From an uncultured bacterium (GTDB lineage: Bacteria; Omnitrophota; Omnitrophia; Omnitrophales; Aquincolibacteriaceae), in assembly GCA_964562525.1 (NCBI GenBank), contig CAZLTL010000010.1, positions 15,389 through 79,388 of the forward strand: a DNA stretch of 64,000 bases. The letters run 5' to 3'. The stretch's first letter is position 1. Every line of letters begins with the position of its first letter. This document shows, in pieces, positions 24,709 to 58,755 of this stretch. The translations under genes and the position numbers were made by a program. The notes under the pieces are model-generated. The model worked only from the letters and a program-made list of their open reading frames with translations. It was not told the DNA's origin and made no database searches.

Positions 24709-24782
24709 GTCCCCATAGCTCAAATGGATAGAGCATCTCCGTCCTAAGGAGAGGGTTGCATGTTCGACTCATGCTGGGGACA
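24709..24782 (+). tRNA. tRNA-Arg (anticodon CCT)
   Basis: Hand-folded cloverleaf: acceptor GTCCCCA/TGGGGAC, D-arm GCTC-AAATGGATA-GAGC, anticodon stem TCTCC/GGAGA with loop GTCCTAA, T-arm GCATG-TTCGACT-CATGC, discriminator A. Confidence 0.8.
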
Positions 24783-36396: not shown

Positions 36397-36618
36397 ATGA
36401 CTTACGTGCCTCTCGAAAAGTTGCTGGCTAAAAAAGATTCCAGCGTATTTAAGACCGCTTTGCTTGCCGCGCAGCGCGCGAATGAACTTGCTTGCGGAGC
36501 TCAGCCTTTAACTCAGGCTTCTACGACCAAGGTTTCCACGATTGCTCTCGAAGAAATCGCGCATAACCGCGTTTGGTATGTTGAAGAACCCGTTGCAAAG
36601 GGCAAAGACTCTGAGTAA
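36397..36618 (+). CDS. rpoZ: DNA-directed RNA polymerase subunit omega
   Basis: 73 aa, KTALLAAQRANEL core motif; follows gmk. Confidence 0.8.
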   Translation: MTYVPLEKLLAKKDSSVFKTALLAAQRANELACGAQPLTQASTTKVSTIALEEIAHNRVWYVEEPVAKGKDSE

Positions 36619-37159
36619 GAAGAAAGTCGTCCACATCCTTTCGGGGAGCATTGCCGCGTATAAGGCCCCCGAAATCAGCGAACGTCTGCGGCAGTCCGGT
36701 TTGGATGTAACCTGTGTTCTGACCGCAGCGGCTAAGAAGTTTGTTACTGTCGACACATTACGCGCTTTGAGCGGTAATCCGGTTTATGATGACATGTGGC
36801 TGCTGAATTCGCCTCATGATGTTCTGCATACGGCACTTGCCGATTCCGCGGATTTAATCCTTGTTGCTCCGGCATCGGCGGATTTTCTGGCGCGAGCTTC
36901 AAACGGAATGGCGAATGATTTAGCGGCCTGTGTTTTGCTTGCTTCCCAAGCCCCTGTATGGTGGGTTCCGGCGATGAATGACAATATGTACAAAAATCCG
37001 CTGACCCAAGCCAATATCGAGAAACTCAAGAAAGCCGGTCATCATTTTATTGCTCCCGTTGAAGGTTATTTAGCTTGCGGCAGAACTGCCATCGGACACA
37101 TCGCTGATACTGACACGATTGTGAAGTCCGTAACTCAAGCTTTAGCTGCAGGAAAATAA
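36581..37159 (+). CDS. coaC: phosphopantothenoylcysteine decarboxylase (CoaC flavoprotein), encoded separately from CoaB
   Basis: KKVVHILSGSIAAYKAPEISERL matches the Dfp N-terminal flavin-binding motif (KKIxLGVxGGIAAYK). Start chosen at ATG 36581 (MLKNPLQRAKTLSKKK...); ORF track frame opens at 36542. Confidence 0.75.
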   Translation: MKNPLQRAKTLSKKKVVHILSGSIAAYKAPEISERLRQSGLDVTCVLTAAAKKFVTVDTLRALSGNPVYDDMWLLNSPHDVLHTALADSADLILVAPASADFLARASNGMANDLAACVLLASQAPVWWVPAMNDNMYKNPLTQANIEKLKKAGHHFIAPVEGYLACGRTAIGHIADTDTIVKSVTQALAAGK

Positions 37160-37168
37160 GAGATTTTC

Positions 37169-37867
37169 GTGAAATCCTCGCGATTGCGCACGGCGCAACA
37201 TTCTTCCAATAATAAAATCAAAAAACTTTTGATTACCGCGGGTCCTACCCGTGAAATGCTCGATCCCGTGCGTTTTATTTCCAATCTTTCGACGGGTGAA
37301 TTAGGTTACAAACTTGCCCGGCTTGCGGTGAAAAAAGGTTACGACGTTACTTTGATCAGCGGGCCTACGGCTTTGAAGCCTATTGCCGGTGCGAAGCATG
37401 TCGCGGTTGTAAGTTCCGAGGATATGCGCGTTGCTTGTCTGAAGCATTTTAAAGACAGTGATGCTCTGATTATGACCGCGGCGGTTGCTGATTTTACGCC
37501 CGCGCACCGCGAGCGCCAAAAAATCAAGCGGCGTGAAACGCAATCGGTTGTTTTAAAAAGAACCAAAGATATTTTGGCGGAGTTGGGACCGATCAAAGGG
37601 AGTCGGCTTGTGATTGGATTTTGTTTAGAAACCGAGAAGTGGCTGGAGTATGCCAAGTTAAAGCTTCTTAAGAAAAAAATGACCGGCATCGTGGCGAATT
37701 ACTACGAACCCGGAAAAGTTTGCCCTTTTGGACATAACCCGATGACTTCGGTTTTTATGGACTCGGATCTTCGTACCCGTAAGCACTCGAATCTCTCAAA
37801 GTTGAGCATGGCCAAGAAGATATTGAGTTGGATGGAAGAGCTATCTGCCGCGCAAAAAAATCTTTGA
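37169..37867 (+). CDS. coaB: phosphopantothenate--cysteine ligase (CoaB), separate ORF
   Basis: LLITAGPTREMLDPVRFISNLSTGELGYKLA matches the CoaB domain of Dfp; GTG start 9 nt after the coaC stop. Confidence 0.8.
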   Translation: MKSSRLRTAQHSSNNKIKKLLITAGPTREMLDPVRFISNLSTGELGYKLARLAVKKGYDVTLISGPTALKPIAGAKHVAVVSSEDMRVACLKHFKDSDALIMTAAVADFTPAHRERQKIKRRETQSVVLKRTKDILAELGPIKGSRLVIGFCLETEKWLEYAKLKLLKKKMTGIVANYYEPGKVCPFGHNPMTSVFMDSDLRTRKHSNLSKLSMAKKILSWMEELSAAQKNL

Positions 37868-38486: not shown

Positions 38487-39593
38487 TTGAAACCTTTGCA
38501 GTCTCCTATCCGAATCGGTATTTTAACTTCGGGAGGAGACTGCCCTGGTTTGAATGCCGTTATTCGCGCTGTCGTTAAAACGGCTCGTTGTGCTTACGGG
38601 ATGGAAGTGTTTGGAATAGAAGACGGCTATTTAGGATTGATTGAAAAGCGCGGACACCTTTTAGATCGTCATGATGTTTCCGGAATTCTTCATTTAGGCG
38701 GGACAATTTTAGGTACGGATAATCGTGCTAACCCTTTTCGTGTTCCGATCAAACGCGGCAAGAAAATTATTTTTGAAGACCGCTCCGATGAGGTGATCAA
38801 GCATTTGCGGGAATTAGGAATTGATGTCTTGATTGCTGTGGGTGGTGATGGAACTCTTTCGATTGCGAACAAACTTTCAAAAAAGGGAGTTCGTGTGATC
38901 GGGATTCCTAAAACCATCGATAATGATTTGAGCTGCACCGATTATACTTTTGGATTTGATACGGCAGTTTCGATTACTACCGAAGCGCTTGACCGTCTGC
39001 ATACCACGGCGGCATCGCATCATCGTGTGATGATTCTTGAAGTGATGGGACGCAATGCAGGCTGGATTGCGCTTTATGCCGGATCTGCGGGCGGCGCGGA
39101 CGTCATATTGATTCCGGAAATTCCTTTTAGCGTGAATAAAATATGTGACGTGGTTATGGAAAGAGCGCTGCATACCAAGCGTTATTCGTTGATTGTGGTT
39201 GCGGAAGGCGCTAAGGAGAAGGGGAAGAAGGCGATTGAAAAAGCCCCGGACAAACTTAATCCTTATCCGACTAAGCTTGGTGGCGTGGGTGAATATTTAA
39301 GGCAGCGCATTGAAAAGGCAACCGGTCTTGAGACGCGTGCTGCGAATCTTGGGCATATTCAGCGCGGTGGATCACCGACTCCGTATGACCGCAACTTGGG
39401 GACTTTGTTCGGTAAAACAGCGATCGACTTAGTCGCGCAGAAAAAATGGAATCATATGGTGGGTTTTGTGGGAAACCAAATCAAGGCGTTTCCGATTGAG
39501 AAAGCTGTGAGTAAGATCAAAACCGTACCGTTGAATCATCGGTTGATCGAATCGGGTAAGGCTATTCAGATTTCTTTTGGAAGTCATTTTTAA
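38487..39593 (+). CDS. pfkA: 6-phosphofructokinase (PFK-A family)
   Basis: GILTSGGDCPGLNAVIRAVV, GGDGTLSIA, PKTIDNDL, MGRNAGWIALYAG and HIQRGGSPTPYDR motifs. G104-equivalent Gly retained (ATP-type); K at the 124-equivalent position. Confidence 0.85.
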   Translation: MKPLQSPIRIGILTSGGDCPGLNAVIRAVVKTARCAYGMEVFGIEDGYLGLIEKRGHLLDRHDVSGILHLGGTILGTDNRANPFRVPIKRGKKIIFEDRSDEVIKHLRELGIDVLIAVGGDGTLSIANKLSKKGVRVIGIPKTIDNDLSCTDYTFGFDTAVSITTEALDRLHTTAASHHRVMILEVMGRNAGWIALYAGSAGGADVILIPEIPFSVNKICDVVMERALHTKRYSLIVVAEGAKEKGKKAIEKAPDKLNPYPTKLGGVGEYLRQRIEKATGLETRAANLGHIQRGGSPTPYDRNLGTLFGKTAIDLVAQKKWNHMVGFVGNQIKAFPIEKAVSKIKTVPLNHRLIESGKAIQISFGSHF

Positions 39594-39651
39594 AAAGCAG
39601 TTTTTTTTAATGCCCGAAAGAGTTATCATTCGTTCTCATTTTTATTGATTC

Positions 39652-39723
39652 GGCGCGGTAGCAAAGTGGTAATGCACGGCTCTGCAAAAGCTGTATTCGG
39701 GAGTTCGATTCTCCCCCGCGCCT
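39652..39723 (+). tRNA. tRNA-Cys (anticodon GCA)
   Basis: Hand-folded: acceptor GGCGCGG/CCGCGCC, anticodon stem CGGCT/AGCTG (one G-U) with loop CTGCAAA, T-arm GGGAG-TTCGATT-CTCCC, discriminator T. Confidence 0.75.
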
Positions 39724-39736
39724 CGATTTCTTTCGG

Positions 39737-39760
39737 CTCTGCGCCTTTGGCGCAACCGCA
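39737..39760 (+). promoter_or_regulatory. conserved hairpin motif CTCTGCGCC-TTT-GGCGCAACCGCA immediately 3' of tRNA-Cys
   Basis: Fourth copy of the CTCTGCGCC-N-GGCGCAACCG family. Confidence 0.5.
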
Positions 39761-39770
39761 GTTTATGCCC

Positions 39771-39808
39771 GGGTGGCGAAATTGGCAGACGCAACGGACT
39801 TAAAAGCT
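39771..39808 (+). pseudogene. 5' half of a tRNA-Leu(UAA) (acceptor 5' strand, D-arm, 5' anticodon stem and loop) with no matching 3' half
   Basis: GCCCGGGTGGCGAAATTGGCAGACGCAACGGACTTAAAA matches the tRNA-Leu 5' half through the anticodon loop CTTAAAA. The following GCTGA cannot pair with ACGGA, and no 3' exon (..TCCGT..GGTTCGA..CCCGGGCA) occurs in the next 0.8 kb. Confidence 0.5.
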
Positions 39809-40552
39809 GATTTCAAGATTTTCGTAACTTCAATGTTTTGAACCTAATCCATTACCTGCGCTAGATTTAGACATGATATTTGATGATATCGTGTGATACC
39901 TAAAAACATCGATTTCTACTTGGTATAGTCACACCCTAGTCACACGGAAATTGATCAGAAACCTGCCTTTTAAATTCTCTGCTCATTACGCGATTATGAG
40001 TTTGTCTTGGGCTGGAAATTAACCAGTCATGGCTAAAATTTGACCAATCGATTAAAGGGCATATTACATCGCGTGCTCTTAGGGCTTTGTTAGATGGGTC
40101 TATTATGCTTTTAAATGGCCCAAGGCAAACGAGGGGAATGTTCCCCAGCAGGCCAACCCATTATTGACTCACATGTGCCCCTTAGGAGCTTTTTTCGGGC
40201 CTTTTTGAGATTTTAGCCGAATTGAGGGCGGCTGTGCTCTTCTACCTTATTGGATTAGGCGCCCAAAGCTGTTATTTATGATTGCCTGTCTTTAGCGTTC
40301 TGACTAAACGGAGATTTTTAGGCTGTCGTACCGGGAGGAAACGATTTCGATGAATTTAGTTTTGGTGCTGGGAGGGCGTTGGCTCGCTTTGATGAACTCG
40401 AAGCAATAGCTTTATTGATACCAGGCATTATTAATAAATTGAGCTGGGGCATCAAGTCTTTGCAGAGGCTTGAAGTTTTAAGGTGTGAATCAGCATTACC
40501 CTTGGTTTAAAATGGTGATAGTCTTAAAAAAAGAGGTTGAAATGTCTCAAAA

Positions 40553-40572
40553 TTAAGATAAGCTTATCTTAA
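40553..40572. promoter_or_regulatory. 20-bp perfect palindrome TTAAGATAAGCTTATCTTAA (predicted Rrf2/NsrR-type operator), 20 bp upstream of the truncated Rrf2 gene
   Basis: Identical 20-mer at 56972-56991; same GATAAGCTTATC core at 58253-58270 and 58775-58794, each 15-45 bp upstream of a start codon. Confidence 0.6.
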
Positions 40573-40592
40573 TTAGGGCTGAGGGAGGCTAT

Positions 40593-40847
40593 GTGCTATA
40601 TTCGAAAACTTGTGAGTATGCAATTCGGGCATTGGCCTATATTGCGTCAAAAGACGATGCTTTAACTACAGCCACTGTTGAAGTGAAGAAAGCCACGGTG
40701 ATACCCGGACCTTATTTATCGAAAGTGTTTGGGGTTCTGGTTAGAAAGACAATTTTGAAAGCAAAGCAAGGGCCGGGGAGCAGCTTTTCTTTTGCACGAG
40801 ATTTCAAAGAAATCTCACTTTTAAATCAAAAAAAGAAAAAAACATGA
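40593..40847 (+). CDS. Rrf2-family transcriptional regulator, truncated paralog (N-terminal wHTH only, Cys ligands absent)
   Basis: 84 aa. First ~70 aa are near-identical to the N-terminus of the 155-aa Rrf2 protein at 58288 (MLYSKTCEYAIRALAYIAS...GPYLSKVFGVLVRK). It ends in KKKKT within A7 tracts before the three-Cys segment; GTG start; stop overlaps the next gene (ATGA). Confidence 0.6.
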   Translation: MLYSKTCEYAIRALAYIASKDDALTTATVEVKKATVIPGPYLSKVFGVLVRKTILKAKQGPGSSFSFARDFKEISLLNQKKKKT

Positions 40848-41593
40848 TCACAAAAAAACAACGGCCCGAAACCTTATTCGAAATACCTCAGGTTTTGATT
40901 CAATCGATTCGAGCGAATTCGGACTTATCGAAATTGCCGGCTGATGCGATTGAAGATTTGGCGAAACAAGCGGCACGCAGGAAGTTTGTCCGCCGACAAA
41001 TTATTTTTGAAGCCGGTCAGCCCGCGCAGGATGCTTGGATTTTGATTAGCGGTAAAGCGGTGCTGGGCTATACGGCGCTCTCGGGGGCTTCTTCTGCGAC
41101 TTGCGTGGCGGGACCGGGAGATTTGTTCTGCTGCCTGCCGATTTTGGACGGCGAAGGTTATCCCGTTACGGCGATCAGTGAAAAGAAAAGCGAAGTTCTT
41201 ACGATTCCGCTTGCTGTTTTTAAGCAAATGCTTTGGCAGCATCCGGAAGTTTTTCAGTCTGTGTTAAAACGGATGTCCGCTAGTTTAAGAGCGGTTGAGT
41301 GCGGGCATTGTCACCGTGTTGATCGTGTTTCGGTAAGAATTGCGCGCACTTTGCTTGATTTAAGCCTAAAGCATCAGGATGTGATTCCGCTAACCAAGTG
41401 GGATATCGCGCGGCTTTCCGGAACTACGGTTGAGACGACGATTCGCGTGATGGCAGAAATGAAAAAGAAGAAAGCGATTGCCGGGGCAAAAGAAGCGATC
41501 AAAATTTTAGATTTTGATAAGCTGCGTGATTTCCTTACCGAATCCGATCAAGATTCAAGCGGCTGCGCCTCGCAAACCAAAAAAAGAAAATAA
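40844..41593 (+). CDS. Crp/Fnr-family transcriptional regulator (Dnr/NnrR-like; no FNR N-terminal Cys cluster)
   Basis: N-terminal cNMP-binding beta-roll (RRQIIFEAGQPAQDAWILISGKA) and C-terminal HTH (ARLSGTTVETTIRVMAEM); translationally coupled to the truncated Rrf2. Confidence 0.8.
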   Translation: MITKKQRPETLFEIPQVLIQSIRANSDLSKLPADAIEDLAKQAARRKFVRRQIIFEAGQPAQDAWILISGKAVLGYTALSGASSATCVAGPGDLFCCLPILDGEGYPVTAISEKKSEVLTIPLAVFKQMLWQHPEVFQSVLKRMSASLRAVECGHCHRVDRVSVRIARTLLDLSLKHQDVIPLTKWDIARLSGTTVETTIRVMAEMKKKKAIAGAKEAIKILDFDKLRDFLTESDQDSSGCASQTKKRK

Positions 41594-56893: not shown

Positions 56894-56971
56894 TATCTGA
56901 TTTGTCGCAGTTCCGTTGGTGAATGGCATACTCAGAATAGATCTAAAAAAGACCTTGCATGGCGTTTTTAA

Positions 56972-56991
56972 TTAAGATAAGCTTATCTTAA
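56972..56991. promoter_or_regulatory. 20-bp perfect palindrome TTAAGATAAGCTTATCTTAA (predicted Rrf2/NsrR-type operator), 45 bp upstream of the RIC gene
   Basis: Identical to 40553-40572. Confidence 0.6.
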
Positions 56992-57035
56992 TTCGATTTT
57001 TGAAATGTTTTAAGACTTACTAATGGGAGCTATTC

Positions 57036-58095: not shown

Positions 58096-58252
58096 AAATA
58101 TCCCGGCCACAGATTCATAAATCAGCGATTCCTTTTGGCCGTGACGCGTACCGTGTGAATATAACTTCAACCCGCTGAAGAGTCGCTTTTCCATAGCTGC
58201 GCATTTGTGATGTTTCGTAATCTTTAAAAAACACTTGCCTTTGTTTCTAAAT

Positions 58253-58270
58253 CAAGATAAGCTTATCCTT
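58253..58270. promoter_or_regulatory. imperfect copy of the GATAAGCTTATC palindrome (CAAGATAAGCTTATCCTT), 18 bp upstream of the Rrf2/NsrR-like gene
   Basis: Shares the 12-bp core with the two perfect 20-mers. Confidence 0.55.
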
Positions 58271-58287
58271 ATTTAGCTGAGGTTAAA

Positions 58288-58755
58288 ATGCTTTACTCTA
58301 AAACATGTGAATATGCAATTCGGGCGCTGGCGTATATTGCTTCTCAAAAGAATTATGCCGGCTACACATCAAGCTCCGAAGTTAAAAAAGCGACCGGAGT
58401 CCCAGGGCCCTATTTATCAAAAGTATTTGGGGTGTTAGTGCGCAAAGAGGTTTTGAATGCCAAACAAGGCCCCGGAGGGGGAGTTGCTTTTGCGCGTTCC
58501 CCAAAAGAGATTTCACTTCTCGATATTATTTCGTCGATTGAGACGACTGAGCTCGTGGAAAAAAAATGTATCATGGGCCTCTCAGAGTGCAGCGCTAAGC
58601 ATGCTTGCCCGATGCATGATGAGTGGGGAGAGTTAAAGCGAAAAATGGTGCGTAAGTTGTCTAAAATTTCAATTTTTGACATATCCCAGGCTTTGGGAAC
58701 GAGACAATTTCGTGAGTTGAGCCGTGCCAAACTCAAAGACTGGGCGGCGGCATAA
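58288..58755 (+). CDS. nsrR: Rrf2-family [Fe-S] transcriptional regulator (NsrR-like)
   Basis: N-terminal wHTH (MLYSKTCEYAIRALAYIAS); three-Cys cluster-ligand segment CIMGLSECSAKHACPMH; 155 aa; preceded by its own palindromic site. Confidence 0.75.
   Translation: MLYSKTCEYAIRALAYIASQKNYAGYTSSSEVKKATGVPGPYLSKVFGVLVRKEVLNAKQGPGGGVAFARSPKEISLLDIISSIETTELVEKKCIMGLSECSAKHACPMHDEWGELKRKMVRKLSKISIFDISQALGTRQFRELSRAKLKDWAAA

Follow-up and report, generated by a model that had tools for sequence, protein, structure and literature searches.

Tyrosine integrases commonly cross over in the anticodon loop of tRNA genes, and islands normally carry the tRNA part that is needed for rebuilding, with the displaced fragment left at the opposite end. 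In the Islander collection of 3919 islands integrated in tRNA genes (tDNAs), a 3' fragment is left by 3760 islands and a 5' fragment by 159, the latter being accepted only if it lies upstream of the regenerated tDNA, and anticodon-centred sites are found in 2083 islands (PMC4383910; site classes after Williams 2002). Such islands have been little described in the phylum Omnitrophota. Here we analysed a 64-kb stretch of DNA from contig CAZLTL010000010.1 (the window, 64,000 nt), in which an intact tRNA-Cys gene is followed by the 5' half of a tRNA-Leu(UAA) gene that breaks off at the end of its anticodon loop. The window belongs to Candidatus Omnitrophota (the best matches of its phosphofructokinase, PFK, encoded just before the tRNAs at 38487-39593, are 82-96% identical at the protein level). 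This PFK, the one protein of the window that was looked up by its exact sequence, is not on record in the collection consulted. Read rightwards, the locus appears to fit the minority layout, with a conserved host flank, a displaced 5' fragment, an island arm and variable cargo. By this comparison it is a probable member of the tDNA-integrated island class (5' fragment, anticodon site), and no new mechanism would be involved.

The tRNA-Leu(UAA) fragment and the same site in relatives

The elements at the break are the following.

39652-39724, plus strand: intact tRNA-Cys(GCA) (ARAGORN; Rfam RF00005, 65.5 bits; identical in seven relatives)
39767-39805, plus strand: tRNA-Leu(UAA) 5' fragment, 39 nt, GCCCGGGTGGCGAAATTGGCAGACGCAACGGACTTAAAA (sequence comparison with relatives)
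39799-39805, plus strand: anticodon loop CTTAAAA, the last bases in common with the intact gene and the presumed crossover region
39806-39987 (BLAST extent), plus strand: conserved post-junction block, proposed island arm (better conserved than flanking genes)

The fragment comprises the 5' strand of the acceptor stem, the D arm, the 5' strand of the anticodon stem and the full UAA anticodon loop CTTAAAA. It ends on the last base of that loop, after which the 3' anticodon-stem strand TCCGT is replaced by GCTGA. Its sequence is identical (39/39) to the first 39 nt of the intact tRNA-Leu(UAA) in the related loci L001, L082 and L087, and also (39/39) to the fragments in L089, L004 and L003. Because the intact genes that match it stand at the same position, 39767-39805 is a genuine fragment of a tRNA-Leu(UAA) gene and not a chance match. 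The 3' half of the gene (TCCGTCGGGRATTYAAACACCCATGCCGGTTCAATTCCGGCCCCGGGCA) was found on neither strand of the window, the T arm plus CCCGGGC acceptor strand gave no match on either strand, and ARAGORN, allowing introns up to 3 kb, called no tRNA-Leu in the window or in L004. An initial annotation, made from the letters of the sequence alone, had described a tRNA-Cys followed by a tRNA-Leu(UAA) 5' half that lacks its 3' half, and this was confirmed by ARAGORN, Rfam, the 39/39 identity and the search of both strands. The same annotation had named a complete tRNA-Leu as the finding that would speak against it, and none was found, with or without an intron of up to 3 kb.

The only tRNA genes in the window are tRNA-Arg(CCU) and tRNA-Cys(GCA). 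TTA makes up 17% of the leucine codons and, to our knowledge, can be read only by tRNA-Leu(UAA); therefore a working tRNA-Leu(UAA) gene must lie elsewhere in the genome, outside the window. As a separate observation, tRNA-Arg(CCU) (24709-24782) reached 60 bits in a local Rfam run and was missed in the gathering run over the whole window. Fast filters can lose true tRNAs when the input is long, so a whole-window negative is not trustworthy on its own.

Comparison with relatives revealed both states of the site. In L001, L082 and L087 a normal 90-nt tRNA-Leu(UAA) stands directly after PFK and tRNA-Cys. The same truncation with the same junction occurs in L089 (PFK 96% identical in amino acids) and in L004 and L003 (PFK 83%), the common junction reading ...GGACTTAAAA joined to (G/C)CTGATTTCAAGA.... 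The broken state is present at four loci (the window, L089, L004 and L003), each with homologous sequence after CTTAAAA, and the intact and disrupted sequences part directly after 39805 in all seven loci compared. Truncated loci occur in two clades of the PFK tree, both with an intact sister, and the 25-nt upstream flank is identical in L089 (truncated) and in L001 and L082 (intact). Taken together, the breaks in two clades and the shared flank indicate an event that either recurred or was transferable and that struck precisely where the anticodon loop ends, rather than a random deletion. An assembly artefact is ruled out, since the same junction is present in four independent assemblies. At one further locus, L005, no tRNA-Leu at all follows tRNA-Cys.

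Logan contigs (k=31) of two relatives, drawn from different samples, break off inside tRNA-Leu after exactly 30 nt (k-1).

L081, 11378-11407: end of contig in tRNA-Leu
L090, 1957-1986: end of contig in tRNA-Leu

The Logan contig L087, which has the intact tRNA-Leu, runs straight through the gene. The two k-1 ends are suggestive of a second sequence context for the tRNA-Leu 5' part, with different upstream flanks. When the gene next after the intact tRNA-Leu of L082 was used as a lead towards the far junction, it gave only distant homologues on short contigs, and in L091 no tRNA lies upstream.

The DNA between the two tRNAs also varies among relatives, as given below.

39725-39766, plus strand: spacer between tRNA-Cys and the tRNA-Leu fragment, 42 nt, with the hairpin GCGCC-TTT-GGCGC at 39741-39753
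L001 2491-2600, L082 9410-9520, L003 11186-11290, L081 11176-11300, L089 1371-1480, L090 1750-1860: long hairpin between tRNA-Cys and tRNA-Leu

The small hairpin of the window shows one compensatory change relative to L004. In the long-spacer relatives L001, L081, L082 and L089, a promoter-like TTGCTG-18-TATAAA ends 7 nt before position 1 of tRNA-Leu (L001 2628-2668, L081 11337-11377, L089 1508-1548), and this element is missing from the short spacers of the window (42 nt) and L004 (80 nt), so the fragment in the window may have no promoter of its own. The long hairpin, of about 105 nt, is present in six relatives and absent from the window, L004 and L087. Six of its base pairs keep pairing through two-sided changes, L081 has an insertion in the loop, and the element matches no Rfam family, the only hits being spurious miRNA-like ones. 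One possibility is a small RNA that is transcribed together with the tRNAs, another a mobile repeat of palindromic form. Variation extends into tRNA-Cys itself, for which two alleles of the T arm and variable loop exist (TATTCGGGAGTTCGATTCTCCC and AATGCGGCGGTTCAATTCCGCC). The window, L003, L088 and L005 differ in this respect from the other loci, a division that does not follow the PFK tree (the sisters L003 and L004 differ) and points to recombination between lineages at this locus.

DNA on either side of the break

The block that begins at the break is better conserved than the neighbouring genes in every pair compared. Positions 39806-39973 are identical to L004 at 149/168 sites (88.7%), vs 71-75% for the flanking genes, and the 83 nt after the junction that are available in L089 are all identical (83/83), vs 89.3% for the PFK DNA. 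That the fragment and the arm outconserve coding DNA across hosts differing by 11-28% is unexplained unless the island is still active or the DNA has a further role. No conserved ORF (open reading frame) runs through the block, since stops occur in all frames in one or both species (window, L004). An Rfam cmscan of 39500-41500 at E<=10 returned tRNA-Cys and noise only, and a viral protein scan for the block found nothing. A structured RNA was considered for this block and rejected, as the folding z-scores are only -1.1 to -2.1 on both strands in the window and in L004, and the covariation between two sequences is too thin to use. The block does contain weak promoter-like hexamers and a set of phased heptamers.

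39891-39945: heptamer repeats, GTGTGAT at 39891-39897 and inverted GTCACAC at 39928-39934 and 39939-39945 (read from the sequence)

The two GTCACAC copies are 11 nt apart, and all three heptamers are invariant in L004, which makes them candidate protein-binding repeats. On these grounds the block would be protein-binding DNA rather than an RNA gene.

A likeness between the junction and the neighbouring tRNA-Cys was also seen. Positions 39802-39821 (AAAAGCTGATTTCAAGATTT) match tRNA-Cys 39686-39705 (AAAAGCTGTATTCGGGAGTT), which is its anticodon loop and 3' stem, at 15/20 sites in register (p about 0.01-0.02, post hoc), and the L003 variant AAAACCTGA is the corresponding stretch of the L005 tRNA-Cys. 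The idea of a Leu::Cys chimera, with the post-junction sequence as a decayed tRNA-Cys 3' half, was not adopted; past these 20 nt there is no similarity. The likeness may be due to chance or to an island core site that mimics an anticodon arm.

Further to the right, the window contains the following features.

40008-40053, plus strand: second patch conserved with L004, with promoter-like CTGGAA-16-TAAAAT facing rightwards (alignment)
40054-40550: ORF-free DNA with no counterpart in relatives (no BLAST match in 91 loci; no Pfam match in six frames)
40551-40574: perfect 24-nt palindrome AATTAAGATAAGCTTATCTTAATT, before the truncated Rrf2 gene
40593-40847, plus strand: truncated Rrf2 gene, 84 aa, N-terminal DNA-binding half only (Pfam Rrf2 positions 2-75 of 132)
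40844-64000: lineage-specific block with Crp/Fnr, nrdG, nrdD, a radical-SAM cluster, KAS, ScdA, Rrf2, hemerythrin, qNor and a porin (Pfam)

In the second patch, the L004 counterpart TTGGAA-17-TAGAAT was found by a promoter scan, which missed the copy in the window that we read by eye. Similarity to L004 ceases about 250 nt after the junction. Across 39806-40592 (787 nt) the longest start-to-stop ORFs are 33, 43 and 45 aa, in agreement with the earlier statement that no ORF of at least 60 codons occurs for about 0.8 kb, and a minus-strand stretch that runs for 74 codons free of stops lacks a start codon and matches nothing in Pfam. The description of this stretch as AT-rich was right in direction and too strong in degree, its GC content being lower but only mildly so (0.41 vs about 0.47 for the window). 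Pseudogene remnants were looked for in 39806-40600 and dismissed for want of any Pfam match. The idea of an insertion sequence (IS) or miniature inverted-repeat transposable element (MITE) was likewise discarded, as there are no terminal inverted repeats and no second copy of the junction sequence in the window.

An identical copy of the 24-nt palindrome lies at 56970-56993, upstream of a ScdA-type gene, and the palindrome is likely to be an Rrf2-type operator. The truncated Rrf2 gene is a copy of the 5' half and promoter of the full-length Rrf2/NsrR-like paralogue at 58288-58755 (73% amino acid and 70% nucleotide identity to 58242-58518). The same truncation is kept in L086, whose Crp is 98% identical, so this may be a functional protein of a helix-turn-helix (HTH) domain only rather than a dead gene. 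The genes that follow are presumed to be island cargo that runs off the end of the window. They are absent after the tRNAs in L001, L004 and L005, and part of the cluster is present in a different context in the Omnitrophota genome L084.

To the left of the break, the gene order is stable. About 10 kb upstream, comprising exonuclease VII, ispA, dxs, NAD kinase, gltX, gmk, rpoZ, coaB/C, PFK and tRNA-Cys, keep the same order in L001-L005 and L081-L083 and, over the length that they cover, in the shorter contigs, with tRNA-Cys(GCA) as the final gene of this syntenic block. To the right of the tRNAs, nothing is common to the window and its relatives except the post-junction block: a giant secreted protein follows in L001 and L082, an AbiEii/XRE toxin-antitoxin pair comes first in L004, and L005 has a gene unrelated to anything in the downstream region of the window. 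The tRNA locus is a synteny breakpoint with lineage-specific content downstream. The comparison of gene order that the initial annotation had proposed thus came out in its favour, with the upstream order kept in relatives and the downstream order differing by lineage. Within the upstream block, CoaC (flavoprotein, 36542-37159) and CoaB (DFP, 37169-37867) are separate adjacent ORFs in the window and in all relatives examined. These two domains are usually fused as CoaBC, and their separation here is a lineage trait rather than a frameshift.

Proposed island integration and competing explanations

We consider it somewhat more probable than not that the half tRNA-Leu is the displaced 5' fragment at the junction of an island integrated in the anticodon loop of tRNA-Leu(UAA). 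A circular island would have carried its own copy of the tRNA-Leu 5' part beside its attachment site, and site-specific recombination would have taken place in the anticodon loop of the host tRNA-Leu(UAA). The host 5' fragment (39767-39805) would thereby have been joined to the island arm (39806 to about 39987), in which the heptamers may bind the recombinase. At the far end, more than 24 kb downstream and beyond the window, a working tRNA-Leu would have been rebuilt from the island 5' part and the host 3' part, probably with the integrase gene beside it, and to the right of 40.6 kb the variable genes would be either cargo of the island or DNA rearranged later. The fragment, the breakpoint in four genomes, the empty sites in sisters, the conserved arm and the synteny break are observed parts of this scheme, and from them we infer a recombinase, where the crossover took place, a tRNA rebuilt at the far end and how far the island extends. 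Phased repeats without an ORF or a stable RNA fold are what would be expected of a protein-binding arm, and the k-1 contig ends in L081 and L090 fit a second copy of the tRNA-Leu 5' part in carrier genomes. Integration at the tRNA locus, which the initial annotation had offered together with deletion as an ancient event, is supported by the same breakpoint in four genomes and two clades with intact sisters. The word ancient is doubtful, given a fragment with 39/39 identity, 168 nt that outconserve coding DNA and host-like composition downstream.

Several findings weigh against an integrated island. The defining second end is unseen, as no rebuilt tRNA-Leu or 3' half occurs in 39806-64000. A Pfam scan of all major ORFs in 40593-63008 detected no integrase or recombinase, and the 24 kb downstream contain no phage or conjugation genes. 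The tetranucleotide distance between upstream and downstream DNA is 9.6, inside the internal controls (8.6 and 12.3), and leucine codon usage is equal on the two sides; the downstream DNA is not compositionally foreign but host-like. The abrupt change reported earlier is accordingly one of gene order and not of composition, and the k-mer comparison proposed as a check showed no break between the two sides. The divergence of the post-junction block climbs with host divergence (0%, about 10%, 11%), a pattern that looks more like vertical descent under constraint than recent mobility. Neither the block nor the junction was found in scans of metagenome contigs, viral contigs (DNA) and plasmid records, and phage records gave matches to the tRNA-Leu 5' half only, none to the block. 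The k-1 contig ends could equally be explained by co-occurring relatives with the same invariant tRNA 5' part, and homologous recombination, to which the tRNA-Cys alleles off the PFK tree bear witness, could have spread the broken allele.

Some of these points are accommodated by an integration that rebuilt nothing, or by the decayed remnant of one, in which a short common core in the anticodon loop was used, the tRNA was never restored, leucine decoding fell to another tRNA-Leu(UAA) of the element or host, and the element has been mostly lost or rearranged in the window. No tRNA is rebuilt at the observed junction, no integrase is nearby, and both the truncated Rrf2 gene and the 0.5 kb of orphan DNA without ORFs look like rearrangement debris; a precedent exists among actinobacteriophages, in which the core measures about 10 bp and the phage itself supplies a replacement tRNA (PMC10865867). 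We nevertheless think it unlikely, because a replacement tRNA-Leu or 3' half is nowhere in the 64 kb, and a decayed remnant should not keep a 39/39 fragment and 89-100% arm identity while genes are at 72-89%. A mobile element may also be dispensed with altogether, if one illegitimate deletion or rearrangement removed the 3' half in an ancestor that possessed another copy of tRNA-Leu(UAA), descent and homologous recombination later spread the broken allele, and the block is selected regulatory DNA (promoter, operator). T-arm alleles of tRNA-Cys and types of spacer are mixed with respect to the PFK tree, which indicates allelic exchange at the locus, and the scaling of block divergence with host divergence, the host-like composition, the lack of mobility genes and the promoter-like motifs inside the block are all in keeping with such a history. 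However, the break falls exactly at the boundary between loop and stem of the anticodon arm, a classic recombinase target; the block is not dedicated to a single conserved gene, wholly different genes following it in the window and in L004; and homologous exchange needs shared right-hand DNA, of which none is seen. This explanation, too, has in our view only a small chance of being correct.

A working role for the half gene is very improbable. The 5' half would here be a piece of a split tRNA, joined in trans at the RNA level with the block as leader or guide, or it would be one state of a reversible DNA inversion. The 5' half does not vary among carriers, the next 168 nt are apparently constrained in a way that tracks host divergence, and tRNA-Leu(UAA) is needed while no other copy is in the window. 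Against this stand the weak folding z-scores and the lack of convincing covariation in the block, the loss of the promoter-like element before tRNA-Leu in the window and L004, and the ordinary intact gene that sister lineages use at the same locus; moreover, we know of no bacterial split tRNA or of the splicing machinery that one would require. The strict form, in which the 5' half and a trailer of 170-250 nt are transcribed and joined to a 3' half encoded elsewhere, whether as RNA or through a reversible rearrangement of the DNA, we regard as a shade less probable still. Least probable, and effectively excluded, is a tRNA-Leu(UAA) interrupted by a group I or other intron with a missed 3' exon, which the initial annotation had put forward as its alternative. 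This tRNA is the classic bacterial host of group I introns, and the sequence after U34 starts with A's, as it does in cyanobacterial introns. Completion would, however, need TCCGTCGGG...CCCGGGCA downstream in cis and a ribozyme core, whereas Rfam at E<=10 gives no group I or II match in 39500-41500, neither strand carries a 3' exon or T-arm/acceptor match within 24 kb, and the similarity among carriers, L004 included, ends about 250 nt past the junction and gives way to unrelated genes.

Significance and comparison with known systems

If the island reading is true, the locus marks one edge of an island, at least 24 kb long, that brings genes for anaerobic ribonucleotide reduction and nitric-oxide defence, along with a radical-SAM cluster, into the genome of an uncultured member of the Omnitrophota, and tRNA-Leu(UAA) is a hotspot used repeatedly within the family. 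The junction ...GGACTTAAAA joined to GCTGATTTCAAGA... offers a precise marker with which the other end of the island, its recombinase and its relatives may be sought. Annotators should be warned that the tRNA-Leu at this place is a fragment. Were the tRNA-Leu(UAA) truly split, it would be the first bacterial split tRNA. The locus is otherwise an ordinary example of a known but uncommon layout, and its unusual point is the conservation of fragment and arm above that of neighbouring genes.

Among the systems that resemble the locus in part are the split tRNA genes of Nanoarchaeum equitans, in which a 5' half likewise stands alone and terminates directly after the anticodon, with conserved sequence outside the tRNA behind it. 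Split tRNAs belong to archaea and need both a splicing endonuclease and a complementary leader on the 3' half, and unlike them the tRNA of the window has an ordinary unsplit gene in close relatives. The group I intron of cyanobacterial and plastid tRNA-Leu(UAA) interrupts the same tRNA species in the region of the anticodon loop, but the window has no ribozyme core or 3' exon, and unrelated protein genes follow. The tRNA-dependent lysogeny of Cluster K4/L mycobacteriophages (Guerrero-Bustamante and Hatfull 2024, PMC10865867) is similar in that integration takes place in a tRNA gene, there is no rebuilding at the junction examined and the cell needs the same isoacceptor from another gene; it differs in that the 64 kb of the window hold no phage genes, integrase or replacement tRNA-Leu.

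The closest resemblance is to the islands of the Islander type (PMC4383910). They differ from the locus in that the regenerated tRNA and the integrase which define them are not within the window, with no integrase in the first 24 kb of the proposed island; in the cargo, which in the window is housekeeping-like (nrdDG, radical-SAM enzymes, nitric-oxide detoxification) and which, although its content differs between lineages, has the tetranucleotide and codon usage of the host; and in the host, here an uncultured Omnitrophota lineage. They agree with it in a tRNA gene split at one of the recognised places (anticodon loop, T loop or T/acceptor junction), here the anticodon loop (the break is at 39805/39806 in the window and at the same point in L089, L004 and L003), in a 5' fragment that lies upstream beside a conserved host flank and is followed by variable cargo, and in empty, intact sites in relatives, the intact and disrupted states alternating on the PFK tree. 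The implied length of more than 24 kb is also within their usual range of 2-200 kb.

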